Shown piece by piece: positions 5,099-60,845 of a stretch of 64,000 bases of DNA (positions are counted from its first letter, which is position 1; every line of letters begins with the position of its first letter). Made by a program: the position numbers and the translations under genes. The notes below the pieces were generated by a model. It worked only from the letters and a program-made list of their open reading frames with translations. It was not told where the DNA came from and made no database searches. Location: positions 12,972 through 76,971 of the forward strand of contig DYJA01000003.1 in the NCBI GenBank assembly GCA_020723345.1, given 5' to 3'. Origin of the DNA: Candidatus Aquidulcis sp. (GTDB lineage Bacteria > Chloroflexota > Anaerolineae > UBA4142).

Positions 5099-6571
5099 AT
5101 GACTCACTTTGAACTCCTCACAGCAGAACAAGTCAACGAAATCCACGCCGCGTCGCTCGAAATACTTGAGAACGTCGGTTTGCTGGTGCGGAACGAAAAC
5201 GCACGCGCGCTTTTCGCGCGGCACGGTTGCCGCGTCGACAACGCAACAAACATCGTCAAGTTTCCGCGTGCCGTCGTCGAACAATATCGCGCGGCATTTC
5301 CGCCGACGTTCACTTTTCACGGACGCGATCCAAAATATGATCGCACCATCCCACGCGATCGACCGGTGATCGTCACCGGCAGTTCCGCGCCGGATTTGGT
5401 CGATCCGGTGACCGGGCAAGTGCGCCGCGCGTACTCGGACGACATCGCGCGCATCGCGCATCTCATCAACGCGTTGCCGGGTTACGACGTGTTTTCCATT
5501 TCCACGCTCGCCGAAGACGCGCCGCCCGGTTACCACACGATCGCGCGGCTGTACCCGTCGGTGAAGAATTGTGTCAAGCCGGTACGCTGCAACGCGTTGA
5601 ACGCCGACGACGCGGAAAAAATTCTGCGACTCGGCGCGCTCGTCGCCGGAAGCGAAACCGCGTATCGCGCGCGTCCGTTCATCACGGGACATTTTTGCCC
5701 GGTCGTTTCGCCGCTCACGATGGACGTTGACTCGACCGAGATGCTGATCTATTTCACCGCGCGGCAACTGCCTAATTACGCGACGATCGTGCCAAACGGC
5801 GGAATGTCGTCGCCGCTGACGCTGCTGGGAACGCTCGCGCAAGGCAACGCGGAATTTCTCGCGTGGGCAACGTTGGCGCAAATGGCGCATCCCGAAACGC
5901 CGCTGATCTACAGTTCGCTCTCGACGCTCGCGGATATGCGGCGCGGCAACTATGCGCCCGGCGCGATCGAAACGGGGATGTTGCACATCGCGCACGCGCA
6001 AATGGCGCGGTTTTACAACGTGCCCTCCGGCGGTTACATCGGCTTGACAAATTCCAAACTGAACGACGCGCAAGCCGGGTACGAGTGCGGCATGTCGGTC
6101 GTCGCGGGGTTGCTTGGCGGCGCGGATATGTTCAACCTGGGTGGCTTGCTCGACGCGCTGACGACGTTTGACTTTGGCAAAGCGGTGACTGACAACGAAA
6201 TCGCGTTGATGCTGAAACGATTGCAGCGCGGTTTCGAATTCAGCCGCGAAAACATGTCGCTCGATCTGATCGCCGAAGCAAAGCCGGGCGGAACGTTCAT
6301 GGACAAGCCGCAGACGCTCGATTTGATGAAGACCGCGCTCTTCTTGCCGGACATCGCGGATCGTAACGTGCGCGACCGCTGGCAGAAACAAGGCGCGCTG
6401 GACGCGCAAGCGCGCGCGCTGAAACGCGTGCGTGAGATTTTGGCGCGCGATAACCCGGCGGTCTTTTCGCCGGAGGTAGACGCGCGCGTGCGCGCCGCGT
6501 TCGCCGGATTGGTCAAAGGGGATTCCGTGCCGCTGAACAGTCAACAGTCAACAGTCAACAGTCAACGGTAA
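5099..6571 (+). CDS. Second MttB-superfamily methyltransferase, non-pyrrolysine type
   Basis: 'FELLTAEQVNEIHAASLEILENVGLLVRNENARALFARHGCRVD'. No in-frame TAG. The C-terminal 'LNSQQSTVNSQR' is encoded by (CAGTCAA)n heptamers. Confidence 0.85.
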   Translation: MTHFELLTAEQVNEIHAASLEILENVGLLVRNENARALFARHGCRVDNATNIVKFPRAVVEQYRAAFPPTFTFHGRDPKYDRTIPRDRPVIVTGSSAPDLVDPVTGQVRRAYSDDIARIAHLINALPGYDVFSISTLAEDAPPGYHTIARLYPSVKNCVKPVRCNALNADDAEKILRLGALVAGSETAYRARPFITGHFCPVVSPLTMDVDSTEMLIYFTARQLPNYATIVPNGGMSSPLTLLGTLAQGNAEFLAWATLAQMAHPETPLIYSSLSTLADMRRGNYAPGAIETGMLHIAHAQMARFYNVPSGGYIGLTNSKLNDAQAGYECGMSVVAGLLGGADMFNLGGLLDALTTFDFGKAVTDNEIALMLKRLQRGFEFSRENMSLDLIAEAKPGGTFMDKPQTLDLMKTALFLPDIADRNVRDRWQKQGALDAQARALKRVREILARDNPAVFSPEVDARVRAAFAGLVKGDSVPLNSQQSTVNSQR

Positions 6572-11358: not shown

Positions 11359-12762
11359 ATGGTTGAGATCATTACTGGCATCCGAGCCGGACGCGCAAAA
11401 ATCCTGCAGCGGCGTGGGCGGCTGACCGAAACCGTTCCGCCTACGCTCGCCGACCGATTGCAGAAAACTTTTGGCGAGCCGCTGACGCCCGAGCAAGCCG
11501 TTGCGCGCATCATCGCCGACGTGCGCGCGCGCGGCGACGCGGCGCTGCGCGACTGGACGCGCCAACTCGACGGGGTCGCCCTCTCGTCGATCGCGGTGAC
11601 GCCGGACGAAATGGACGCGGCGTACGCGGAAACGCCGAGCGCGGTGCGCGACGCGCTCGCGCGCGCGGCGGCACGCATTCGCGCGTTTCACGAAAAGCAG
11701 AAACCAAAATCGTGGTTGTCAGGTAGGGGCGAAACATTCGCGCGAGTGCGTTCGCAATTCAACGAAGATGTGCGTTTCATGGAAGATAGAAATGCGGAAG
11801 ATGACTTGAATGCTTCGCCCCTACTGGGGCAACGCATCATTCCGCTCGCGCGCGTCGGCGTGTACGTGCCGGGCGGTACCGCGCCCCTGCCCTCGTCGCT
11901 GCTCATGTCTGCGATTCCCGCGCAGGTCGCGGGCGTGCGTGAGATCGTCGTCGCGACGCCGCCCACGATCGCGCCTGCGATTCTCGCGGCGGCAAAAATC
12001 GTAGGAGTCACGCGCGTCTATGCGCTGGGCGGCGCGCAGAGCATCGCCGCGCTCGCGTTCGGCGCGGAATCCGTCGCGCGCGTCGACAAGATCGTCGGCG
12101 CGGGCGGCTTGTTCACGACGATAGCGAAGCGGCAAGTGTTTGGCGCGGTCGGCATTGACGGCTTGTACGGTCCAACGGAAACGCTGCTGATCGCGGACGA
12201 TTCCGCGCATCCCGCGTGGTGCGCCGCGGATCTGCTCGCGCAAGCGGAGCACGACATACTCGCGACGAGCATTCTGGTTACCACTTCCCGGTTACTCGCT
12301 GATCAAGTCGCTCAAAATCTCGAATCTCAAATCTCCAATCTCTCCCGACGCGCAATCATCGCGCAATCTCTCGCCAGCCAGGGCGCGATCATCATCGTCG
12401 AAAATTTGGACGAGGCGATGGAGTTGGGCAACGCATTCGCGCCGGAGCACCTATGCCTGCTCGTGCGCGAACCCTGGAACTGGGTGGGCAAAGTAGAGAA
12501 CGCGGGCGGCGTGTTCGTGGGCGAGTGGACGAACGAAGCGCTCGGCGATTACGTGATCGGTCCGAGCCACGTGATGCCGACGGCGGGCACCGCGCGCTTT
12601 TCGTCGCCATTGAACGTGAACGATTTTGTGAAAATCACGAGCGTGTTCAGCGTGAGCGCGCGTGAGGCGCGTCAACTCGGCGAAACCGCGGCGACGCTCG
12701 CGGAAGCAGAGGGGCTGACCGCGCACGCGAACGCGATCAGACAACGAATGAGGAACGAATAG
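11359..12762 (+). CDS. hisD: Histidinol dehydrogenase carrying two in-frame repeat insertions
   Basis: 'VGVYVPGGTAPLPSSLLM', 'LAQAEHD' and 'APEHL' motifs. See findings for the 102-bp TIR element (11723-11824) and the (AATCTCN)4 tract (12316-12343). Confidence 0.9.
   Translation: MVEIITGIRAGRAKILQRRGRLTETVPPTLADRLQKTFGEPLTPEQAVARIIADVRARGDAALRDWTRQLDGVALSSIAVTPDEMDAAYAETPSAVRDALARAAARIRAFHEKQKPKSWLSGRGETFARVRSQFNEDVRFMEDRNAEDDLNASPLLGQRIIPLARVGVYVPGGTAPLPSSLLMSAIPAQVAGVREIVVATPPTIAPAILAAAKIVGVTRVYALGGAQSIAALAFGAESVARVDKIVGAGGLFTTIAKRQVFGAVGIDGLYGPTETLLIADDSAHPAWCAADLLAQAEHDILATSILVTTSRLLADQVAQNLESQISNLSRRAIIAQSLASQGAIIIVENLDEAMELGNAFAPEHLCLLVREPWNWVGKVENAGGVFVGEWTNEALGDYVIGPSHVMPTAGTARFSSPLNVNDFVKITSVFSVSAREARQLGETAATLAEAEGLTAHANAIRQRMRNE
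11723..11824. mobile_element. 102-bp miniature element with 17-bp terminal inverted repeats, in frame inside hisD
   Basis: GTAGGGGCGAAACATTC at 11723-11739 and GAATGCTTCGCCCCTAC at 11808-11824 are reverse complements (16/17). Length is 34 codons. Confidence 0.7.
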
Positions 12763-12990
12763 ACGAATGGCACGCGGGCAGGATGAGTCAACAACGGAGG
12801 AGCATCCAAGATGAAACAGCCACTTTCCATCGGGATCAGTTGAGACAATTCGACATCCGCTGATCGTCGCGTATTTGAAAGCGGCTCTGGCGCAGGAGCG
12901 CACGCGTAGCTAATCGAGAAGAAAAGCAATCCGGCTAGAGGTGGCCGGCGGCATAGCCAAAGTAGGCACATTCCTTGAAGGAGGGACTTG

Positions 12991-14064
12991 ATGAACGGTT
13001 TCGATGCCAGCACTTTGTTGCGGCAGGACTTGCTCAACTTTCCGCCGTACCGAATGGCGGCGGTGAAAATCGCGGACATGGATCGCGTGATCAAACTGGA
13101 CGCGAACGAGAATGCGTTTGGACCATCGCCGAAGGCGCTTGCGGGGCTTGCGGCGATGCGTCACTGGAATCGCTACGCGACCCAGGATGAACTGCGTCCC
13201 GCGATTGCGAGTTACGTCGGAGTCGATCCGGCGCACATCGTCGTCGGCAACGGCGGCGATGAACTGCTCGATCTGTTGGAGCGCGCATTTTTGAATCGCG
13301 GCGACGCGATCGTCGACCTGCCGCCTTCGTTTGAGATGTACGCCAAGTACGCGGAGGTGAATGGTGGGCGCGTGATTGCGGTGCCGCGCCGCGCCGATTT
13401 CTCGATTGACGTGGACACGCTCAAGCGCGTGGTGGCGCAAGACAAGCCCAAGATCATCTTCGTCGCGAACCCGAACAACCCAACGGGGACGCTCTTGTCG
13501 CGCGAGGAAATCGAACGCGTCCTCGCGCTGCCCGCGCTCGTCGTGCTGGACGAAGCGTACGCGGAGTTTGCGGGTGAAAGTTACGTCGACCGCGTGCCGA
13601 CCCAGCCCAATCTGTTCGTTCTGCGCTCGTTCAGCAAGTGGGCAAGTTTGGCAGGTTTGCGGATTGGCTACGGCGTCGCGCCAGTACGCATCGCGGACCA
13701 GCTTTTCCGAAACAAGTCGCCGTACAACGTGAACGCCGCGGCGATCGTCGCCGCGCAGGCGTCCTTGGAGGACAAGGAGTATTTGCTCGCCAACGTGCGC
13801 CGGGTCGTCGCCGAGCGCGAACGATTGACGGACGCGCTGACGCGCCTCGGCTATTTGCAGCCCTTCCCCAGTCGCACGAATTTCATTCTCTGCCGCGTGA
13901 AGCGATGCGATGCGCGCGGGCTGCGCGACGCATTGGCGGAACGGAACATCTTGATTCGCGCCGTTACGAATCCGCAGTTGCGCGACTGCATTCGCATCAG
14001 CGTCGGGACGCCGGAACAAAACGCGACGCTGCTGCGCGCGTTGGAAGAACTCACGCCCGCGTGA
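12991..14064 (+). CDS. hisC: Histidinol-phosphate aminotransferase (copy 1)
   Basis: 'LDANENAFGPSP', 'NPNNPTG' and PLP-lysine 'SFSKWASLAGLRIGY'. RBS GAAGGAGGG. Confidence 0.9.
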   Translation: MNGFDASTLLRQDLLNFPPYRMAAVKIADMDRVIKLDANENAFGPSPKALAGLAAMRHWNRYATQDELRPAIASYVGVDPAHIVVGNGGDELLDLLERAFLNRGDAIVDLPPSFEMYAKYAEVNGGRVIAVPRRADFSIDVDTLKRVVAQDKPKIIFVANPNNPTGTLLSREEIERVLALPALVVLDEAYAEFAGESYVDRVPTQPNLFVLRSFSKWASLAGLRIGYGVAPVRIADQLFRNKSPYNVNAAAIVAAQASLEDKEYLLANVRRVVAERERLTDALTRLGYLQPFPSRTNFILCRVKRCDARGLRDALAERNILIRAVTNPQLRDCIRISVGTPEQNATLLRALEELTPA

Positions 14065-14087: not shown

Positions 14088-15212
14088 ATGTCGAATTTTG
14101 ATGCCACCAAATTGCTCCGCGAAGACCTGAACGATTTTCCGCCGTACTCGATGGGACACGTGCCGCTCGCGGAGTTGGACTCGCTCGTCAAGTTGGACTT
14201 GAACGAAAACACGTACGGACCGTCGCCCAAGGCGCTCGCCGCCGTCGCGCAGATGCGGCACTATCACCGCTACGTCGGACAGCAGGAATTGCGCGAGGCG
14301 ATCGCGCGCTATGTCGGCGTGGGGGTGGAACACATCGTCACCAGCAACGGCGCGGACGAGATGATCGATCTGGTGCAGCGCATGTTCCTCAATCACGGCG
14401 ACGCGATTGTGGACTGCCCTCCGTCATTCGAAATGTACGCGTTCTTCGCGCGCGTGAACGGCGCGCGGATCGTCCGTGTTCCACGGCGAGAGGATTTTTC
14501 CGTCGACGTGGATGCGGTAGAAAAAGCGATTTCAGATTTCAGATTTCAGATTTCAGATTCTGCAAACCCGACTGCGGAATCTCTCATCTCCAAGCTCCAA
14601 TCTCCAAAGTTGGTATTCCTCGCCAACCCCAACAACCCCGACGGCATGATGATCCCGCCTGCCGATGTGGAACGACTGCTCGCGCTGCCGGCGCTCCTCG
14701 TACTCGACGAGGCGTACGCGGAATTTGCTGGGCAGAGTTACGCCGCGCGCGTGCCGACCCAATCGAATTTGATCGTGCTCCGAACGTTCAGCAAGTGGGC
14801 GGGGCTGGCGAGTCTGCGGGTCGGCTACTGCATCGCGCCGCAGGCGATCGCGGCGAAAATTCTCCAATGCAAAGCGCCGGAGAATGTGAACGCGGCGGGA
14901 AACGTAGCGGCGCGCGCGTCGCTCGACGACCTTGAATATCTGCACGCGAATGTGCGCCGCATTGTCGCGGAACGCGAACGCCTGGCGGGAGAATTCGGGA
15001 AACTCGGCTTTCTCCAGCCCCTGCCCAGCCGCGCGAATTTTCTCTTCTGCCGCGTGCTCGGGCGCGACGCCAGGCAAATCCACGATGCGCTCGCCGGGCA
15101 CGGCATTTTGATCCGCGCATTCGGCGCGCCGCGCTTGCGCGAGTACATTCGCATTGCCATCGGAACGCCGGAGGAAAATGAGACCGTGTTGAAGGCGCTG
15201 AGGGAAATGTGA
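14088..15212 (+). CDS. hisC: Histidinol-phosphate aminotransferase paralog (copy 2) with an in-frame heptamer insertion
   Basis: Same motifs ('LDLNENTYGPSP', 'NPNNPDG', 'TFSKWAGLASLRVGY'). (GATTTCA)4 and AATCTCC-type heptamers at 14528-14612 encode 'SDFRFQISDS...SLISKLQSPK'. Confidence 0.85.
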   Translation: MSNFDATKLLREDLNDFPPYSMGHVPLAELDSLVKLDLNENTYGPSPKALAAVAQMRHYHRYVGQQELREAIARYVGVGVEHIVTSNGADEMIDLVQRMFLNHGDAIVDCPPSFEMYAFFARVNGARIVRVPRREDFSVDVDAVEKAISDFRFQISDSANPTAESLISKLQSPKLVFLANPNNPDGMMIPPADVERLLALPALLVLDEAYAEFAGQSYAARVPTQSNLIVLRTFSKWAGLASLRVGYCIAPQAIAAKILQCKAPENVNAAGNVAARASLDDLEYLHANVRRIVAERERLAGEFGKLGFLQPLPSRANFLFCRVLGRDARQIHDALAGHGILIRAFGAPRLREYIRIAIGTPEENETVLKALREM

Positions 15213-17074: not shown

Positions 17075-17128
17075 CACGAAATTCGTATTGCGTGTTGCGT
17101 GTTGCGTGAAATCCAATCTCCAATCTCT

Positions 17129-17866
17129 ATGATCATTTTCCCTGCAATTGATTTGCGTCACGGTCGCGTCGTGCGTTTGCAGCAAGGACGCGCGGACGCG
17201 GAAACAAAATACAGCGACGATCCCGTACAAGTCGCCGCGCGCTGGCAGAGCGAAGGCGCGGAGTGGCTGCACGTCGTCAACCTCGACGGCGCGTTCGGCG
17301 ATGATGCAGCAGCCAACTCTCTCGCGCTGCAAAACATTCTCGCGACCGTTTCGATTCCCGTGCAATTCGGCGGCGGACTGCGCGACATGGCAAGCATCGA
17401 GTCCGCGTTCGCGCTCGGCGTCGCGCGCGTTGTGATCGGCACAGCGGCAATCGAAAATCCGCAACTCGTGTCGGACGCGCTCGCGCGTTTCGGCGCGGCG
17501 CGCATCGTCGTCGGCATCGACGCGCGCGACGGCATGGTCGCGACGCGCGGCTGGCGCGAACAATCGCAGGTCAGCGCGCGTGATCTCGCGAAGCAAATGC
17601 GCGAGCGCGGCATCGCGCGCATCGTCTACACCGACATCGCGCGCGACGGCATGTTGCGCGGCATCGACGGGGACGCGATGGCGGAACTCGCGCGTGCGGC
17701 GAACGTGCGCGTGATCGCATCCGGCGGCGTCGCGAATTTACGCGACATCGAAGCGCTCGCGGCGCGACAAGAAATCGAAGGCGTGATTGTGGGGCAGGCG
17801 CTGTACTCAGGAACGCTGACGCTGAAAGAAGTATTCAGTGTTCAGTATTCAGTCGAGGAGGAATAA
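17129..17866 (+). CDS. hisA: ProFAR isomerase
   Basis: 'IFPAIDLRHGRVVRLQQG', 'VIASGGV', 'GVIVGQALY'. The C-terminal 'FSVQYSVEEE' is encoded by CAGTATT/CAGTGTT heptamers. Confidence 0.95.
   Translation: MIIFPAIDLRHGRVVRLQQGRADAETKYSDDPVQVAARWQSEGAEWLHVVNLDGAFGDDAAANSLALQNILATVSIPVQFGGGLRDMASIESAFALGVARVVIGTAAIENPQLVSDALARFGAARIVVGIDARDGMVATRGWREQSQVSARDLAKQMRERGIARIVYTDIARDGMLRGIDGDAMAELARAANVRVIASGGVANLRDIEALAARQEIEGVIVGQALYSGTLTLKEVFSVQYSVEEE
17831..17854. repeat. Left arm of the heptamer inverted repeat flanking the four-helix-bundle gene
   Basis: GTATTCAGTGTTCAGTATTCAGTC. It shares an exact 18-nt complement with 18306-18332. Confidence 0.8.
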
Positions 17867-18318
17867 TGAGTGAATTGGCTTTTGCGAAGGGCTTCAAGGA
17901 TTTGATCGTTTATCAGAGAGCGCGCCAACTGCAACGCGAAGTTTTCCCCCTGAGCAAGGCGTTTCCTCGTGATGAATCATTCTCGCTCACCAATCAGATC
18001 CGGCGCTCATCGCGTTCCATCGGCGCCAATATCGCGGAGGCATGGGCGAAACGGCGATACGAGCGACACTTTGTGAGCAAACTCAGCGATGCCGAAGGCG
18101 AACTGTTTGAGACACAGCACTGGATCGAAACTGCGGTGGAGTGCAAATATCTGGAATTGGTACAGGCAAAGGCGCTAAATGACAAATGCGTGGAAATCGG
18201 ACGTATGCTCGGCAGCATGATGGACAAAGCCGAACTTTTCTGCGGCGAACAATACAAAATTGTGCGAGAATCACACGTAGAATATTTCTTCGACTCAACC
18301 AACGCCACTGAACACTGA
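17866..18318 (+). CDS. Four-helix-bundle protein (23S rRNA intervening-sequence protein family) inserted in the his operon
   Basis: '[54 protein letters not shown]' is the family signature. TAATG overlap with hisA and its own RBS GAGGAGG. More AT-rich than its neighbours. Confidence 0.85.
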
Positions 18319-18332
18319 ATACTGAACACTGG
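18306..18332. repeat. Right arm of the heptamer inverted repeat flanking the four-helix-bundle gene
   Basis: CACTGAACACTGAATACTGAACACTGG. Confidence 0.8.
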
Positions 18333-18341
18333 ATACCAACT

Positions 18342-19160
18342 ATGCTTGCAAAGAGAATAATCCCCTGTCTCGACGTTCACGCGGGAAAAGTCACGCGCGG
18401 CGTCCAATTTGGTAAAGCCGAAAAAGGCGAACTGCGCAACGTCGGCGATCCCGTCGAATGTGCGCGCGTGTACGACGCGGCGGGCGCGGACGAACTCGTT
18501 TTCCTCGACATCACCGCGTCGTCCGAAAAGCGCGAAATCTTTCTGGACGTGGTGCGCGCGGTCGCGGATCAAGTTTTCATTCCGTTCGCGGTCGGCGGCG
18601 GCGTGCGCAGCGTCGAAGATTACCGCGCGATTTTGCTCGCAGGCGCGGACAAGGTCGCGATGAATACCGCGGCGGTCGAAAATCCCGCGATGATTACGGA
18701 CGCGGCGGAAAGATTTGGGGCGCAGTGTGTCGTCGTCGCGATAGACGCAAAATCGGAATTCGGAATTCAAAATTCAAAATTCGGCAATCGAAAATCGAAA
18801 ATCGAAAATCGAAAATGGCAAGTCTACACGCACGGCGCGCGCGTTCCCACCGGCAAAGATGTCGTCGAGTGGGCGCGCGAAGTGGAAGCGCGCGGCGCGG
18901 GCGAAATTTTGCTGACGAGCATCGACCGCGACGGGACGCGCGATGGATTCGAAATCGAACTGACGCGCGTGGTCGCGGACGCGGTGACGATCCCGGTGAT
19001 CGCGTCGGGCGGCGCGGGGCGCATTGAACATTTCGCCGACGCGATTATCGACGGACACGCGAGCGCGGTGCTCGCCGCGAGTTTGTTTCATTTTGGCGAA
19101 TTGACGGTCGCGCAGGTGAAGGAGTATTTGGCAAGTCGCGGTGTGGCGGTGAGAAGATGA
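18342..19160 (+). CDS. hisF: Imidazole glycerol phosphate synthase cyclase subunit with an in-frame heptamer insertion
   Basis: 'RIIPCLDV', '[11 protein letters not shown]', '[10 protein letters not shown]', 'VIASGGAG'. Positions 18749-18817 are AATTCNN/AAATCGA heptamers encoding '[21 protein letters not shown]'. Confidence 0.95.
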
Positions 19161-27908: not shown

Positions 27909-28686
27909 CAAAACCCGCCTGCAAGAGCAATATCGCGATGGCACGAACCTCGCGGCGCGCGCCGCGTTACACGCGCGCTTTACGACCGCGCCGCGTCCCT
28001 GGACATCCTGGGTGTTCGATCATCTCGATTTGCCGCGCGACGCGCGCGTGCTCGAAATCGGCTGCGGCACGGGCGGACTGTGGCGAAGCAACCGCGAACG
28101 CATTCCAACATCGTGGCGATTGACGCTCACCGATTTTTCGTTCGGCATGGTCGAGACGACGCGCGCGACCGACATCACCGCGAATCTCGCGCAAAGCGAT
28201 GCGCAGCAAATTCCCTTTCGCGACGCGGCGTTCGACGCGGCGATCGCGAATCACATGTTGTACCACGTGCCCGATCTGCCGCGCGCGCTCGCGGAAATTC
28301 GGCGCGTACTGAAACGCGGCGGCAAATTTATCGCGGCGACGAATGGCATCGCTCACATGCGCGAACTAGACGAACTGACCAGCCGTTTGGGGGTTCACCC
28401 GGGCAGCAACGCGCTCCAGTTCGGATTGGAAAACGGCGCACAAATTCTTGCCAGATATTTCTCATCAGTGCAACGAATTGATTTCGCCGACGCGCTAATC
28501 GTGACCGAAGCCGAACCACTCGTCGCGTATATTCTCTCGATGTTCTCGGCGCAAAAGATACGCGGCACTGAAGCTGAACAACAGTTGCGCCAAGTGATCG
28601 CCGAGCGCGTTACGCGTGATGGCGCGATCCGGATCACAAAATCGCAGGGCTTGTTCATTGCGGAAGGACAAATTTCCAATCTCTAA
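27889..28686 (+). CDS. Class I SAM-dependent methyltransferase
   Basis: Motif I 'VLEIGCGTGGLW', then 'AAIANHMLYHV' and 'LKRGGKFIAAT'. Confidence 0.85.
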   Translation: MIHPFTDKTRLQEQYRDGTNLAARAALHARFTTAPRPWTSWVFDHLDLPRDARVLEIGCGTGGLWRSNRERIPTSWRLTLTDFSFGMVETTRATDITANLAQSDAQQIPFRDAAFDAAIANHMLYHVPDLPRALAEIRRVLKRGGKFIAATNGIAHMRELDELTSRLGVHPGSNALQFGLENGAQILARYFSSVQRIDFADALIVTEAEPLVAYILSMFSAQKIRGTEAEQQLRQVIAERVTRDGAIRITKSQGLFIAEGQISNL

Positions 28687-28705
28687 TCTCCAATCTCCAA
28701 TTTCC
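28671..28705. repeat. Heptamer tract (AATYTCY)5
   Basis: AATTTCC AATCTCT AATCTCC AATCTCC AATTTCC. Confidence 0.85.
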
Positions 28706-29302: not shown

Positions 29303-29842
29303 ATGGAGCGTTTGATGAAATTCAAAGGGCGGGTTTGGAAATACGGCGACGACGTGAACACCGATGTGATTTTTCCCGGCAAGTACACGTACACGATTAC
29401 GGATCCGAAAGAGCAGGCGCAGCACGCGCTCGAAGATTTGGATCCGAATTTCGTGAGCCAAGTTCAGCCGGGCGACATCATCGTCGGCGGTAAAAATTGG
29501 GGCAACGGTTCTTCGCGCGAGCAAGCGGCGACGTGTCTGAAATATTCCGGCGTCACCGCGCTCATCGCGAAATCGTTCGCGCGCATTCACTTTCGCAACC
29601 TGGTGAACAATGGACTCGCGCCGATTGTCTGCGCGCCTGCGGTCGACGCGATCCAAAATGGCGAGACCGTCGAGATCGATCTCGACGCGCACACGATTCG
29701 CTGCGCCGCCGGCGCGTTCGATTTTCCGCCGCTCTCGCCGACGCTGTTTACGATCATCGAAACCGGCGGCTTGATTCCGATGCTGCGGCGCAAACTCGGC
29801 ACGGAACATCTGCCGATGCCGGAGATTAAGGGAGGAGAGTAG
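29303..29842 (+). CDS. hacB: Homoaconitase / 3-isopropylmalate dehydratase small subunit
   Basis: '[14 protein letters not shown]', '[14 protein letters not shown]', '[17 protein letters not shown]'. The start could also be 29315. Confidence 0.85.
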
Positions 29843-29899
29843 AGATTGGAGATTAGAGATTGCCGGTATCCAATCTCTAATCTCTAATCTCCAATCACT
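29840..29899. repeat. Heptamer-repeat hairpin (GATTRGA / TCYAATC)
   Basis: AGAGATTGGAGATTAGAGATTG ccggta TCCAATCTCTAATCTCTAATCTCCAATC. Confidence 0.85.
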
Positions 29900-31012
29900 A
29901 TGTACAAAATCGCTTGGCTGCCCGGCGACGGGATTGGAAAAGATGTAATGGACGCGGCGCGCGTGGTGCTCGACGCGTTGAAACTGGACGCGCAGTACAC
30001 GCCCGCCGACATCGGTTGGGAGTTCTGGTGTAACGAAGGGGACGCGCTGCCGCAGCGCACGATTGACACTTTGCGCGCGTCGCATTGCGCGTTCTTTGGC
30101 GCGATCACGTCCAAGCCGAAAGAAGAAGCGGACGCGGAACTCGCGCCGAACTTGCGCGGCAAGGGTTTTGTCTATCGCAGTCCGATTGTGCGTTTGCGCC
30201 AGATATTCGATCTGTACGTGAACTTACGCCCGTGCAAAGCGTATCGTGGCAATCCGCTGAATTATCGCGACGACATCAACCTCGTCGTCTTTCGCGAAAA
30301 CACGGAAGGGCTGTACGCCGGAGTCGAATTTCATCCGGTCCCGGACAACGTGCGCCGCGCGCTCGAAGAATCGTCCGGCGCGATGCGCGCGTTCAAAGAG
30401 ATCGCGTCGGACGATATGGCGATCACCGCGCGCGTCATCACGCGGCGCGGCGCGGAACGGATCGTCCGCCGCGCGTTCGAGTACGCGCAAAAACACAATT
30501 TCCCGACGGTGACGCTCGTCGAAAAGCCGAACGTGCTGCGCGAGACGAGCGGGTTGATGACGCGCGTCGCGCGCAAGGTCGCGCGCGATTTTCCCAAAAT
30601 CGAATTGTGGGAAGCGAACATCGACGCGATGATGATGTGGCTGCTGAAAAATCCGCAGCAGTACGGCGTGCTCGTGACGAGCAATCTCTTCGGCGATGTC
30701 GTCTCCGATTTGTGCGCGCAACTTGTCGGCGGGCTGGGTTTCGCGGCAAGCGGCAACATCGGCGACCAGTTCGCGGTCTTCGAACCGACGCACGGCTCCG
30801 CGCCCAAGTACGCCGGACAAAACAAGGTCAATCCAATCGCAACATTCTTCGCGGCAAAGTTGATGTTGGATTGGCTCGGCGAAACGGAAAGAGCGACGCG
30901 CCTCGAAAACGCGATTGCGACGGTGATCGCGGAAGGACGCGTGCGGACGTACGATATGGGCGGCAAAAGTACGACGATGGAAATGGCGGAAGCAGTCGCA
31001 GGCAAATTATGA
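29900..31012 (+). CDS. Homoisocitrate / isopropylmalate dehydrogenase family protein
   Basis: 'IAWLPGDGIGKDV', 'NLRPCKAY', 'VVFRENTEGLYAG', 'SNLFGDVVSDL', 'FEPTHGSAPKYAG'. Confidence 0.9.
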   Translation: MYKIAWLPGDGIGKDVMDAARVVLDALKLDAQYTPADIGWEFWCNEGDALPQRTIDTLRASHCAFFGAITSKPKEEADAELAPNLRGKGFVYRSPIVRLRQIFDLYVNLRPCKAYRGNPLNYRDDINLVVFRENTEGLYAGVEFHPVPDNVRRALEESSGAMRAFKEIASDDMAITARVITRRGAERIVRRAFEYAQKHNFPTVTLVEKPNVLRETSGLMTRVARKVARDFPKIELWEANIDAMMMWLLKNPQQYGVLVTSNLFGDVVSDLCAQLVGGLGFAASGNIGDQFAVFEPTHGSAPKYAGQNKVNPIATFFAAKLMLDWLGETERATRLENAIATVIAEGRVRTYDMGGKSTTMEMAEAVAGKL

Positions 31013-34958: not shown

Positions 34959-34985
34959 TTAAGCGCGCCGATCTGCGCCACAGAC

Positions 34986-35112
34986 TTGTCCCCTTCAATG
35001 CCTACGAAGTTAGCTGACGGGTTGGAGTTGAAGGATACTCCTCTCGCTTGGCGAGATTCACCCCTCGATTGGTTCCTCCGTTCTCTCGGTGCACGAGAGA
35101 TTCGGCAGACAA
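34986..35112 (-). promoter_or_regulatory. c-di-AMP riboswitch aptamer (ydaO-yuaA/kimA class)
   Basis: The minus sense contains GAATC-hairpin-GAACGGAGGAACCAA, GAGGGGTGAATC-hairpin-GAGGAGTA and CCAACCCGTCAGCTAACTTCGTAGGC. These match the pseudo-twofold conserved blocks of the ydaO motif (GGGGUGAAUC; ACCCGUCAGCUAACCUCGUAAGC). P1 pairs TTGTC with GACAA. Confidence 0.85.
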
Positions 35113-35132
35113 TTGTTCGATTTTCTGGCTTT

Positions 35133-35200: not shown

Positions 35201-36097
35201 ATGATTATTGACGCGCACACACACCTTTTTTCGCCTGACGTGATCGCGGATCGCGCGCGATACACTCAACGCGATTCCTTTTTCGATTTTCTGTACCGCA
35301 ATCCCAAAGCGCGCATCGTCGGCGCGGCGGAATTGATCGCGGCGATGGACGCGGCGGGCGTCGCCAAATCCATCATCGCGGGCTGGGCTTGGCAGAGCAA
35401 CGATGTTTGCATCGAACAAAACTCGTGGCTGATCGAGATCGCGCGGCAGTACCCGGATCGTCTGCTCGCGCTCTGCACGGTGCAGCCGAATGCCGGCGAC
35501 GCGGCGATCCGCGAGTTTCGACGCTGCATCGAAAATGGAATGGCGGGCGCGGGCGAACTGAACGCGGACGGACAAGGTTTTCGATTGGACGATACCGGCT
35601 TGATGAACCTCGCGCGCGCGGCGATTGAACTGCGCGCGCCGATCATGCTGCACACGAACGAACCGGTCGGACACAATTATCCGGGCAAAGGACAATTGCC
35701 GCTCGCGGCGATCTACGCGCTCGTCAAAGCGCTGCCCGATCTGCGGCTCGTGCTCGCGCATTGGGGCGGCGGCTATCCATTCTACGAACTGATGCCCGAA
35801 GTGCGCGCCGCGTCGCGCAATATTTTTTACGATACCGCCGCGTCGCCGCTGTTGTACGCGCCGCAGATTTTTCGCACTGTCGTCAACATCGTCGGCGCGG
35901 ACAAAGTTTTGTTCGGCAGCGATTTCCCGCTGATCCTTTATCCCAAACGCCAAAAAGAACCCGACATGCAACCATTTCTGGATGAGGCGCGCGGCGTTGG
36001 TTTTTCGGCGGAAGAACGCGCAAAGATTTTGGGAGAGAACGCGGAAAGGGTGTTTGGGCAATCAGTCAATCAGGCAACCGGTCAGTTGGTCAACTAA
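35201..36097 (+). CDS. Amidohydrolase-2 family (TIM-barrel metal-dependent hydrolase)
   Basis: 'MIIDAHTHLF', 'MLHTNEPVG', 'LAHWGGG', 'FGSDFPL'. The C-terminal 'GQSVNQATGQLVN' is encoded by GTCAATC-type heptamers. Confidence 0.85.
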   Translation: MIIDAHTHLFSPDVIADRARYTQRDSFFDFLYRNPKARIVGAAELIAAMDAAGVAKSIIAGWAWQSNDVCIEQNSWLIEIARQYPDRLLALCTVQPNAGDAAIREFRRCIENGMAGAGELNADGQGFRLDDTGLMNLARAAIELRAPIMLHTNEPVGHNYPGKGQLPLAAIYALVKALPDLRLVLAHWGGGYPFYELMPEVRAASRNIFYDTAASPLLYAPQIFRTVVNIVGADKVLFGSDFPLILYPKRQKEPDMQPFLDEARGVGFSAEERAKILGENAERVFGQSVNQATGQLVN

Positions 36098-36132
36098 TTG
36101 ACTGATTGCCTGGTTGACCGATTGACCAATTC
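36058..36132. repeat. Heptamer-repeat hairpin (GTCAATC / GATTGAC family) spanning the amidohydrolase stop
   Basis: CAATCAGTCAATCAGGCAACCGGTCAGTTGGTCAAC taa TTGACTGATTGCCTGGTTGACCGATTGACCAAT. Confidence 0.85.
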
Positions 36133-36859: not shown

Positions 36860-36947
36860 AATTCCTATTTGTCATTTCGAGCGTAGCGAGGAATCTCAAA
36901 TCTCGAATCTCCAATTTCCAATCTCTAATCTCTAATACCCAATCTCT

Positions 36948-37598
36948 ATGCTTCTAACTCCCGTCCCTCTCATCCGTCGGCTCGAACTCGCGCTCCTTGC
37001 GCCGCAACTCGCGCGCGCAGAAATCGAAGCGGGCTGCGCGGCGGCAATCCAGTACGACTGCGTCGCCGTCTTCGTCAAACCGCACTATGTCGAAGTGGCG
37101 CGCAAAGCGTTGAAGGAGACGCGCATTTCTGTCGTCTCGGTGATCGGCTTTCCGCACGGCGGCGTGACGACCGCGACGAAGATGTACGAAACGCAAGACT
37201 TGTGCCAACGCGGCGCGGACGAACTCGCGATGATGATCAACCTCGGCGCGCTGCGCGATCACGATGATCTCGCCGTGCGGAACGACATCGCGGGCGTCGT
37301 CAAAACCGCGCGCGGCAAACCAATCACCGTGATTCTCGAAACGCCGCTGTTGACCGACGAAGAAAAAACGCGCGCAGGCAAAATCGCGGAATCCGCCAAA
37401 GCATCGTTCGTCATGACGGCGACCGGATTCGCGCCGAGCCAAATCATCGCCGCCGACGTCCAGTTGTTGCGCGCGACATGCCCCGCTTTGAAAATCCGCG
37501 CCGCCGGCGGAATCGAAACACAAAGCGCCGCGCTGGAAATGATCGGCGCGGGCGCGGAACGTGTGATCGTCAGTGATATTGAAAAGATATTGAACTGA
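36948..37598 (+). CDS. Deoxyribose-phosphate aldolase (DERA/DeoC)-fold protein lacking the catalytic residues
   Basis: Collinear with class I DERA, but 'ADELAMMIN', 'ITVILET', 'SFVMTATGF' and 'KIRAAGGI' replace the canonical 'ADEIDMVIN', 'VKVIIET', 'FVKTSTGF' and 'VKASGGI'. Confidence 0.75.
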   Translation: MLLTPVPLIRRLELALLAPQLARAEIEAGCAAAIQYDCVAVFVKPHYVEVARKALKETRISVVSVIGFPHGGVTTATKMYETQDLCQRGADELAMMINLGALRDHDDLAVRNDIAGVVKTARGKPITVILETPLLTDEEKTRAGKIAESAKASFVMTATGFAPSQIIAADVQLLRATCPALKIRAAGGIETQSAALEMIGAGAERVIVSDIEKILN

Positions 37599-57480: not shown

Positions 57481-57600
57481 TTTCCCTCTAGTCAATCAGA
57501 CGATCAGGCAATCAGTAATCAGGCAATTAGGCAGCCAAACAATCGGTCGACCGATTGACCGACTACCGATCGACCGATTGCCCGATTGCCTGATTGACCA
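57481..57600. repeat. Heptamer-repeat hairpin (AATCAGG / GATTGCC / CGATTGA family) overlapping the 3' end of the CCA-enzyme gene
   Basis: TAGTCAATCAGACGATCAGGCAATCAGTAATCAGGCAATTAGGCAG...CGACCGATTGACCGACTACCGATCGACCGATTGCCCGATTGCCTGATTGACC. Confidence 0.8.
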
Positions 57601-60226: not shown

Positions 60227-60350
60227 TGGGGAGAATTATAGCACAGTTGGGGAATCGGTCAATTAGTCAATCCGGCAATCGGAGATCGGTCAATCCGGCA
60301 ATCAGGAAGCAGAATACTGGTTGCCTGATCGCCGGATTGACTGATTGCCT

Positions 60351-60379: not shown

Positions 60380-60387
60380 TTCGTCTG

Positions 60388-60461
60388 CCTCCCCGGCGAG
60401 GCTCGAACTCGCAACCTCAGCCTCCGCAGGGCTGCGCGCTATCCAATTGCGCTACGGGGAG
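60388..60461 (-). tRNA. tRNA-Arg (anticodon GCG), CCA not encoded
   Basis: Reverse complement: CTCCCCG TA GCGC AATTGGATA GCGC G CAGCC CTGCGGA GGCTG AGGTT GCGAG TTCGAGC CTCGC CGGGGAG G. Folded by hand. Confidence 0.85.
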
Positions 60462-60465
60462 ATAT

Positions 60466-60536
60466 CCCAGTATTCAGTGTCCAGTAAACAGTAATCAGAC
60501 TGAATACTGAACACCGAATACTGAATACTGAACGCA
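60466..60536. repeat. Heptamer-repeat hairpin (CAGTATT family) between tRNA-Arg and tRNA-Ser
   Basis: CCCAGTATTCAGTGTCCAGTAAACAGTAATCAGACTGAATACTGAACACCGAATACTGAATACTGAAC. Confidence 0.8.
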
Positions 60537-60537
60537 G

Positions 60538-60633
60538 CGGAGGGGGCGGGATTTGAACCCGCGACAGCGGCTTTTAGGACCACTGTAGTCACTTAGCAGG
60601 CGACCGCACTAGACCAAACTATGCGACCCCTCC
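60538..60633 (-). tRNA. tRNA-Ser (anticodon GCT) with a long variable arm
   Basis: The reverse complement starts GGAGGGG TC GCAT...GTGC G GTCGC CTGCTAA GTGAC. Variable arm ACAGTGG-loop-CCGCTGT, T-arm GCGGG TTCAAAT CCCGC, acceptor CCCCTCC G. Confidence 0.8.
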
Positions 60634-60635
60634 AG

Positions 60636-60722
60636 GAAATTTGGAAATTAGAAATTGGACGTTAGAAGTTGGATGGTTGCGGCGGGTCAAACTTCCAACT
60701 TCTAATTTCCAACTTCCGATTC
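60636..60722. repeat. Heptamer-repeat hairpin (GGAAATT / AAGTTGG family) between the two tRNA-Ser genes
   Basis: GGAAATTTGGAAATTAGAAATTGGACGTTAGAAGTTGGATGG...CAAACTTCCAACTTCTAATTTCCAACTTCCGATTCC. Confidence 0.8.
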
Positions 60723-60724
60723 CT

Positions 60725-60808
60725 CGGAGGAGGAAGGATTCGAACCTCCGTGGCTTGTGACCCATCCGCTTTCAAGGCGGCGCCGATAGTCCACTCCGGC
60801 ACTCCTCC
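60725..60808 (-). tRNA. tRNA-Ser (anticodon TGA)
   Basis: Reverse complement: GGAGGAG TG CCGGAGTGGACTATCGG C GCCGC CTTGAAA GCGGA, variable arm, GGAGG TTCGAAT CCTTC CTCCTCC G. Confidence 0.8.
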
Positions 60809-60845
60809 ACGTGCGGACAGAGTATAGCAGAGAGCGGCGATTGTG

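Follow-up and report, generated by a model that had tools for sequence, protein, structure and literature searches.

A four-helix-bundle protein gene between inverted heptamer arrays: a probable intervening-sequence-type cassette in the hisA-hisF spacer of Candidatus Aquidulcis sp.

Introduction

Why should a gene of a family known from 23S rRNA intervening sequences (IVSs) lie between hisA and hisF, enclosed by two inverted arrays of one heptamer family? The question is raised by a 64,000-nt stretch with 58% GC (hereafter the window, within which all positions are counted) of contig DYJA01000003.1 from a Candidatus Aquidulcis sp. genome, where a 453-nt open reading frame (ORF) for a 150-aa four-helix-bundle (4HB) protein occupies positions 17866-18318 (+ strand) between hisA (17129-17866, +) and hisF (18342-19160, +). 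A preliminary description, prepared from the sequence alone, had placed this gene in the loop of a heptamer hairpin and had likened the arrangement to that of an rRNA IVS. The analysis reported here indicates that the unit from 17830 to 18336 is probably an IVS-type cassette, in which a 4HB gene with its own ribosome-binding site is carried between inverted heptamer arrays in the transcribed hisA-hisF spacer.

To our knowledge, the 4HB/S23p family is huge and has no function known outside diversity-generating retroelements, and we likewise know of no accepted role for heptamer repeats, which are over-represented in many bacterial genomes. The arrangement described below physically links these two long-separate puzzles in at least five phyla, including the organism of a crystallized member of the protein family.

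Results

Both genes flanking the 4HB ORF matched PF00977 (E = 2.9e-79 for hisA and 6.5e-77 for hisF). The ORF itself matched PF05635 with 113.3 bits (E = 7.8e-33) and TIGR02436 with 106.6 bits (E = 7.3e-31), the curated cut-offs being 33.8 and 24 bits, respectively; judged by these scores, it is a clear member of the TIGR02436/PF05635 four-helix-bundle (23S rRNA-IVS protein) family, as had been proposed. The 5' arm of the bracket (17830-17853, +), recovered with Tandem Repeats Finder, as an inverted repeat and in RNA folds, consists of 3.4 copies of AGTATTC/AGTGTTC heptamers, belonging to the CAGTRTT family. Two nucleotides past this arm, on the loop side of the stem, the sequence reads GAGGAGG (17855-17861, +), the Shine-Dalgarno (SD) sequence of the 4HB gene. 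The hisA stop codon overlaps the 4HB start codon as TAATG, and on translation of the hisA tail (FSVQYSVEEE, followed by the stop) the last ~12 codons span both the 5' arm and the 4HB ribosome-binding site. The 3' arm (18306-18336, +), made of ACTGAAC/ACTGAAT heptamers and identified with Tandem Repeats Finder and by its complementarity to 17831-17853, ends in ACTGGATAC and contains the TGA stop codon of the 4HB gene. The hisF ATG lies 5 nt beyond the end of this arm, and the ribosome-binding region of hisF, which is weak, falls within and just past it.

The repeat search paired 17831-17853 with 18314-18336 over 23 nt at 96% complementarity, including an exact 18-nt core; the single mismatch becomes a G·U pair in the sense RNA, and the order of the unit variants is mirrored between the two arms. 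The resulting 23-bp long-range stem, which encloses the ribosome-binding site and the ORF, was present in both the minimum free energy (MFE) and the centroid RNA folds. The preliminary description had also called the gene richer in AT than its neighbors, and this was borne out by a GC content of 0.506 overall and 0.583 at third codon positions (GC3), compared with a GC3 of 0.725 +/- 0.038 (minimum, 0.648) for the 36 other genes of the window. The doublet pattern CAGTRTTCAGTRTT of the CAGTRTT family, with at most one mismatch allowed, had 8 matches in the window versus 0.01 expected, and all 8 lay within the two arms and a hairpin in a tRNA spacer at 60466-60532.

No promoter or terminator consensus was found at the junction in a scan of the + strand from 17800 to 18350. 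An intrinsic terminator was rejected as an identity for the hairpin, there being no terminator-like site in this interval and start codons following directly after the arms. No direct repeat indicative of a target-site duplication was found outside the arms (GAAAGA precedes the 5' arm and CAACTA follows the 3' arm), and no transposase or recombinase gene was found within the cassette or adjoining it. Rfam gave no known RNA family at the locus and no rRNA in the window, and PADLOC gave no match and hence no link to a defense system.

The relation between bracket and gene was then examined in 80 homologous loci (48 to 69% protein identity), obtained by scanning species-representative genomes, among which the source genome is not included, with the 4HB protein. 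At nearly all of these loci one array ended a short distance ahead of the ribosome-binding site and start codon, and an array complementary to it began at or just past the stop codon. To score the bracket, the 120 nt preceding each gene were compared with the interval that runs from 30 nt before its stop codon to 120 nt after it, and the best inverted match without gaps was taken. Of 78 loci, 72% scored at least 12. The corresponding fractions were 2.5% for 238 neighboring genes of these loci (Mann-Whitney p = 1e-30) and 11.5% for swapped pairs of upstream and downstream flanks (p = 8e-27); an inverted match of at least 20 between upstream and downstream flanks was found for 1.3% of the 238 neighboring genes. 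Among all 758 ORFs of at least 60 aa in the fetched DNA, 43 were bracketed at a score of at least 14, and a family profile identified 38 of these as 4HB genes. Judging by their coordinates, the remaining five most likely sit between two separate hairpins of one family. Thus, the earlier suggestion that heptamer hairpins can carry cargo stands for 4HB genes, and it does not seem to extend to a general role as carriers.

The repeat unit itself varied by lineage while the arms remained complementary, and the units included CAGTRTT, CAGTGAT, CAGTGAA, CCGTAAT, CAGTGGGA, GACGGAG, CAGACGA, TCAGAGA and GAGTAAT. In 54 loci with clear arrays on both sides there were 19 distinct unit types, and the 5' unit was the reverse complement of the 3' unit, with at most one mismatch, in 35 loci, as opposed to direct orientation in 6. 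The bracket was found in 33 of 38 Chloroflexota-like loci, 14 of 22 loci from Verrucomicrobiota and 3 of 4 from Kiritimatiellota. The neighboring gene was on the same strand at 70 of 75 loci on the upstream side and at 55 of 67 on the downstream side; the cassette sits sense-oriented within operons.

The bracket was also present in cultured organisms. A search of plasmid proteins returned 42 4HB records, mainly from Nostocales, and the plasmid copies of Nostoc punctiforme, N. edaphicum, Tolypothrix and Leptolyngbya were bracketed by arrays of the GCAGGGGA and CTCCCCTG types; a 4HB copy of Azospirillum had a GGACAGA/TCTGTCC bracket. Xanthomonas orthologues and their loci were retrieved with the aligned fragment of PDB entry 2GSC (XCC0516). 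In Xanthomonas, the XCC0516 gene lies between accB and accC and is flanked by inverted heptamer arms of the GGGAATC type, of which the 5' arm, GGGAATCGGGAGTGGAGAATCGGGAATCGG, begins 6 nt past the accB stop codon and the 3' arm, CCCATTCCCCATTCTCGACTCCCTATTCCC, directly abuts the accC ATG. These arms match at 26 of 30 positions with the unit-variant order mirrored, and the element folded with a long-range stem (z = -8.3). The 5' arm corresponds to repeat #15 of Rehm et al., which was marked as having no inverted partner (PMC4692102). Together, these results show that stem-gene-stem packaging is the norm for the 4HB family in Chloroflexota, Verrucomicrobiota, Kiritimatiellota, Cyanobacteriota and Pseudomonadota, and that it occurs in some Bacteroidota.

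These data bear on the simplest alternative, namely, that an unrelated gene came by chance to be inserted between two tracts of one family in a heptamer-rich genome. About 40 period-7 or period-8 arrays were found in the 64 kb with Tandem Repeats Finder, and a heptamer tract stands at every junction of the his operon of the window, so that such tracts are plentiful. However, the CAGTRTT family occurs only at the arms and at one other hairpin in the 64 kb, the unit variants are mirrored between the arms, the bracket is shared by most homologous loci and by few neighboring genes, and brackets built of quite different units are present in Xanthomonas, Nostoc and Azospirillum. Chance juxtaposition is contradicted by the bracket statistics, the ORF bracket test and the counts of reverse-complement units, and we rejected it as extremely improbable.

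The AF2 model of the 4HB protein (pLDDT, 87.8) had helices at residues 14-31, 35-61, 66-92 and 98-120. When this model was used as the Foldseek query, the nearest structures were 2GSC (TM score, 0.93) and 2RLD (BT_0352; TM score, 0.88), each with five chains in its PDB entry, and Avd proteins came next. The published family motif is GxxRxxxSxxxNxxE (PMC3936711); R47, S51, N55 and E58 of the window protein correspond to it, while its leading G is unmatched, and residue 46, R47, N55 and E58 were invariant in an alignment of 56 sequences. The dN/dS ratio for the 4HB protein was 0.06 to 0.21, and dS was at least 0.95 between loci that still share arms. These ratios place the protein under purifying selection and show that it is functional and that the arms are not drifting freely. 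PADLOC and literature searches gave no functional lead for the protein. Premature stop codons were seen in 3 of the 80 homologous genes (L003, 3001-3453; L021; and L034) with the arms persisting, and these genes may be pseudogenes or reflect low-coverage errors.

We considered the possibility that the window protein is an Avd protein of a diversity-generating retroelement, since the fold is homologous (matches to 4DWL and the 8UBx entries) and PF22296 was matched with 46 bits. This identity was rejected because the score against NF033474, the Avd equivalog, was 47.4 bits, below the curated cut-off of 80, because no reverse transcriptase or template/variable repeats were found nearby, and because the neighbors are his genes.

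The closest 4HB homologue, L002 (77% identical), lies downstream of CoA-transferase genes and has CAGTGTT/CAGTATT arms with the same ACTGAACACTGA end as the window. In a neighbor-joining tree, the his-site proteins included (from the window, L006 and L093) clustered with those of L002, L004 and L005, all of which have CAGTRTT arms; the contexts of this clade are hisA-hisF, CoA-transferase, hdrA-like/hdrC-like and metX-like. The metagenome-assembled genome (MAG) SKW216 has two paralogues, one (L028) with 8-mer arms and one at the his site (L034) with CAGTATT arms, and L028 clusters with L017, an 8-mer-armed gene of another MAG. Protein distance was correlated with the distance between 3'-arm units (Mantel r = 0.46; p = 2e-4), a correlation that is confounded by host phylogeny. 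These comparisons indicate that arms and gene are inherited and relocated together.

Such a pairing of gene and arm would also be expected if the 4HB protein were to bind the RNA or DNA of heptamer arrays made from its own family of units, with the gene autoregulated from inside a copy of its target and the protein acting in trans on cargo-less hairpins of that family, such as the one at 60466-60532. This reading draws on the agreement of arm unit with protein clade, on the paralogues of one MAG with different arms, on the 4HB gene being the sole cargo found, on the purifying selection just described, and on a fold near XCC0516 and BT_0352 and then Avd, which in solved structures is part of a reverse-transcriptase-RNA complex. 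In addition, taxa with an excess of heptamers (Xanthomonas and Nostocales; PMC4692102) are rich in 4HB genes. However, binding is a prediction, the clade-unit correlation carries the confounding already noted, some ten hairpins of at least six unit families share the 64 kb with a single 4HB gene, and neither PADLOC nor the literature offered a functional lead. We regard such a partnership between protein and repeat as unlikely.

A metagenome scan with HisF, followed by inspection of the hisA-hisF junction, revealed four states of the site. In the closest relatives (HisF identities of 87% and 81%) the 4HB gene was absent and a cargo-less CAGTCAA/TTGACTG hairpin stood between hisA and hisF; the 3' arm of this hairpin had 4, 6 and 5 units among near-identical contigs. 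In two relatives hisA and hisF overlapped and there was no hairpin. Four relatives (L006, L034, L089 and L093) had hisA-4HB-hisF, and all four kept CAGTRTT arms, so that no occupied his site lacking the inverted repeats was encountered. In two further relatives (L094, 480-990; L095, 2010-2515) the cassette was decayed: an ATGAGTG remnant of the start was kept together with the 5' arm and the ribosome-binding site, the 3' arm was missing, and the ORF was replaced by ~400 nt of unrelated noncoding DNA with an inverted repeat, 'caccctgtcattgcgagg ... cgctcgcaatgacagggtg', and GC-rich repeats. The existence of occupied, empty and decayed states indicates that the cassette is gained or lost on evolutionary time scales. 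The empty site that the preliminary description had proposed to look for was thus found, and it holds a hairpin of a different unit; since L002 has the same arms as the window cassette at another location, the arms follow the gene and not the site.

Because the length of the heptamer unit is not a multiple of three, changes in copy number shift neighboring reading frames. In the empty-site relatives L083 to L085, the hisA frame extends across the 5' arm and on through the loop. At L004 (2920-3453), the open frame that leads into the 4HB ORF already takes in the 5' arm. In Anaerolineae-like genomes, 4HB cassettes also recur at another site, the boundary between the genes for E1 (transketolase-type) and E2 in a 2-oxoacid dehydrogenase operon (L010-L013, L015, L018-L020, L026 and L171-L177), where the 3' arm end, ACTGGAGG, doubles as the E2 ribosome-binding site.

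Gain and loss at the his site might alternatively reflect a cassette that is mobile at the DNA level, with the arms serving as terminal inverted repeats or recombination homology, RNA pairing being incidental, and the cargo-less hairpins being ORF-less derivatives or target sites that stand to the cassette as miniature inverted-repeat transposable elements (MITEs) stand to full transposons. The patchy presence at hisA-hisF, with empty closest relatives and decayed copies, is in keeping with this, as are the occurrence of one clade with the same arms in several contexts, the GC3 of the gene below that of host genes, and mismatches between arms that show no strand-specific wobble bias (see Discussion). 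However, the arms are not framed by a target-site duplication, no transposase or recombinase gene lies in or beside the cassette, the arms are variable-copy arrays of lineage-specific units rather than conserved termini, the gene is nearly always sense-oriented in operons, and no identical copies were found at different sites. The absence of target-site duplication and of an adjacent transposase, together with termini that vary between lineages, led us to reject an identity as a transposon or MITE, and a mobile DNA cassette in the wider sense appears rather unlikely.

Discussion

The system most similar to the window cassette is the ORF-bearing 23S IVS of Coxiella burnetii and Leptospira, which encodes proteins of the same PF05635 family and is of like size (about 430 to 500 nt). 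In the Coxiella IVS, RNase III cuts a terminal stem of 28 bp, and the S23p start codon is preceded by GACAGAT heptamers in tandem, two or three depending on the strain (PMC4990558); tandem heptamers near the start codon are therefore common to both (PMC4990558). The window cassette shares with rRNA IVSs a stem of at least ~20 bp around an ORF and a 4HB cargo, and the stem-cargo-stem likeness that had been drawn from the window holds across the 4HB family. The two differ in location, the 23S IVS sitting in helix 25 or 45 of 23S rRNA and the window cassette in the spacer of a protein-coding operon. Unlike in the 23S IVS, the arms of the window cassette are themselves heptamer arrays, and they extend into coding sequence, the 5' one into the hisA tail and the 3' one over the 4HB stop codon. 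In the window, moreover, a strong ribosome-binding site lies in the loop and the protein is under purifying selection, whereas in Coxiella the ribosome-binding site is lost by cleavage and the ORF is decaying. Cleavage by RNase III has been shown for the Coxiella IVS, whereas the window cassette is known here from sequence.

XCC0516 and BT_0352 have the fold and family of the window protein at only about 26 to 30% sequence identity, and the XCC0516 gene is packaged alike, splitting an operon within an inverted heptamer bracket. A 30-aa C-terminal tail of low predicted confidence distinguishes the window protein from both, and the Xanthomonas stem, unlike that of the window, has a mismatch at every seventh position. 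The arrays themselves resemble bacterial heptamer repeats, namely, the cyanobacterial STRR, TAACTGA (PMC4679880), and GGGAATC and GGGGA(C/T)T (PMC4692102), which likewise form 7-nt arrays in transcribed intergenic spacers. In both cases the arrays are often convergent, hairpin-capable pairs, vary in copy number between strains, and often abut start codons that have no canonical ribosome-binding site; the ACTGATA/ACTGATC units of the window are rotations or near-variants of TAACTGA. Published studies of heptamers have treated the repeats alone, as G-quadruplexes or as S1, Csp or CsrA sites, with no connection to 4HB proteins, and no paper linking the 4HB/IVS family to heptamer repeats was found in the open-access literature searched. 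4HB genes have been noted within cas operons (PMC3936711). Repetitive extragenic palindrome (REP)/BIME hairpins are also dispersed in operon spacers, have no U tract and likely act on mRNA, but REPs are fixed single imperfect palindromes mobilized by RAYT transposases, whereas the window has tandem arrays of short units, one class of which has a gene in its loop.

How might such a cassette be tolerated in essential operons? Translational coupling from hisA to the 4HB gene and on to hisF would carry expression through the insertion; we infer coupling from the overlap of the hisA stop with the 4HB start codon, from the position of the 4HB stop codon within the 3' arm and from the mere 5 nt that separate the end of this arm from the hisF ATG. 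When the region is untranslated, the duplex of ~23 bp could be cut by RNase III as in rRNA IVSs, which would free the 4HB mRNA and split the flanking messages; taken on its own, we hold this step to be possible but somewhat doubtful. Relocation would most likely use the arms as short homology to cargo-less hairpins of the same unit family.

Several observations weigh against an IVS-type cassette acting through its RNA stem. Two of them bear directly on the earlier suggestion that the his transcript may be processed at the stem and argue against simple, efficient cleavage there, namely, the course of the hisA frame and the mismatches between the arms. Translation of hisA passes through the 5' arm, so ribosomes would melt the stem, and any cleavage within it would produce a hisA message that lacks its stop codon. 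The hisA frame of L093 is not closed at all but extends across the 5' arm and joins the 4HB ORF in the same frame (1980-2474), predicting a HisA-4HB fusion, and the read-through of arm and loop in L083 to L085 likewise speaks against efficient cleavage. The fold of the whole region was no more stable than those of shuffled sequences (z = -0.6), with only the long-range stem being notable. Mismatches between arms at 77 loci comprised 139 G·U and 146 A·C, with no sense-strand wobble bias; these counts lend no support to selection specifically on pairing in the sense RNA, and turnover of the arrays or a process acting on the DNA could preserve the complementarity of the arms just as well. The bracket was weak or absent in Bacteroidota (3 of 8) and Planctomycetota (0 of 2), and no simple bracket was found at L009, L015, L018, L019, L043, L044, L051 and L055. 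These eight or so loci have instead either a whole hairpin ahead of the gene and an array of the 3' type behind it or directly oriented arrays. Finally, identical 4HB proteins on many contigs (P0071 and P0034) were always in one context with identical arms, which indicates that movement is rare. Recent transposition was rejected on the same grounds, as neither recent movement nor arm polymorphism was seen among these identical proteins.

The IVS-type cassette nevertheless remains our preferred reading, and under it rRNA IVSs are recast as one habitat of a broader cassette found in essential mRNA operons (his, pdh, acc and hdr). 4HB cassettes also have practical consequences, for they break assemblies, split annotated operons and extend or fuse neighboring ORFs. 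The accB-XCC0516-accC arrangement of Xanthomonas offers a tractable system for the question. A more far-reaching idea, which we consider quite improbable, is that genes for 4HB 'IVS proteins' are the protein-coding, autonomous form of short-period tandem-repeat hairpins, each clade recognizing its own family of 7- or 8-nt units, as RNA or DNA, and propagating or regulating cargo-less hairpins in trans. If true, this would explain both the heptamer excess in bacterial genomes and the function of a large orphan family.

Other repeats and features of the window

Most of the arrays in the window lie in spacers between codirectional genes and form inverted pairs with loops of 4 to 20 nt. At least ten such pairs were present, at 6536/6573, 10036/10070, 16399/16424, 21252/21304, 29834/29872, 36057/36093, 57493/57549, 58607/58662, 60466/60499 and 60636/60690, and seven of them, when folded as RNA, had z scores of about -4.5 to -8. 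Hairpin arrays often run directly into the next start codon, and no U tract followed the hairpins where this was checked, in the his region. With a tract at every his junction and hairpins in the spacers, the hisA-hisF junction looks like one more of these spacer hairpins, differing in that a ribosome-binding site and an ORF of 453 nt occupy its loop.

The cargo-less CAGTRTT hairpin (60466-60532), which the preliminary description had placed between tRNA genes at 60466-60536, was recovered as a strong fold (-36.2 kcal/mol; z = -8.1) that fills the tRNA-Arg/tRNA-Ser spacer. The tRNA genes there (60387-60809, -) are Arg-GCG, Ser-GCT and Ser-TGA, and both spacers are filled by hairpins of different unit families, one of them a GGAAATT/AACTTCC hairpin at 60636-60717 (z = -7.2). 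Arrays with 8-nt units of the CAATCAGG / GACCGATT type, in inverted pairs like the heptamers, were found at 36057-36131, 57493-57599 and 60268-60303; 8-nt arms also occur at the 4HB loci L017, L028, L036 and L037 and in Nostoc.

Solitary pyrimidine-rich arrays of the AATCTCC type were found at 36892-36946, 17112-17127, 28671-28705 and 12315-12342. Two of these abut start codons that have no SD sequence (36892-36946, before the ATG at 36948, and 17112-17127, before the hisA ATG at 17129), recalling the TAACTGA repeats upstream of start codons (PMC4679880). GGAGATT, the complement of AATCTCC, forms the 5' arm units of the hairpin at 29834-29900.

Heptamers were also found within coding sequences. 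The hisF gene of the window contains an in-frame insert of about ten heptamers (AAAATCG / GGAATTC) at 18749-18816, in a loop that is hypervariable in relatives (L083, L084, L089 and L093); in L089 and L093 this loop has in-frame inverted arrays, GACGGAA... / ...TCCGTCC, which amount to a hairpin within coding sequence. Of the two hisC-like genes that lie in tandem, the second contains an in-frame insert coded by heptamers (14528-14559 and 14588-14607; GATTTCA x4.6 and then CTCCAAG) that encodes ISDFRFQISDS...SKLQSPK and is absent from the first paralogue (12988-14064). A c-di-AMP riboswitch (RF00379; 88.5 bits) was found at 34984-35117 (-).

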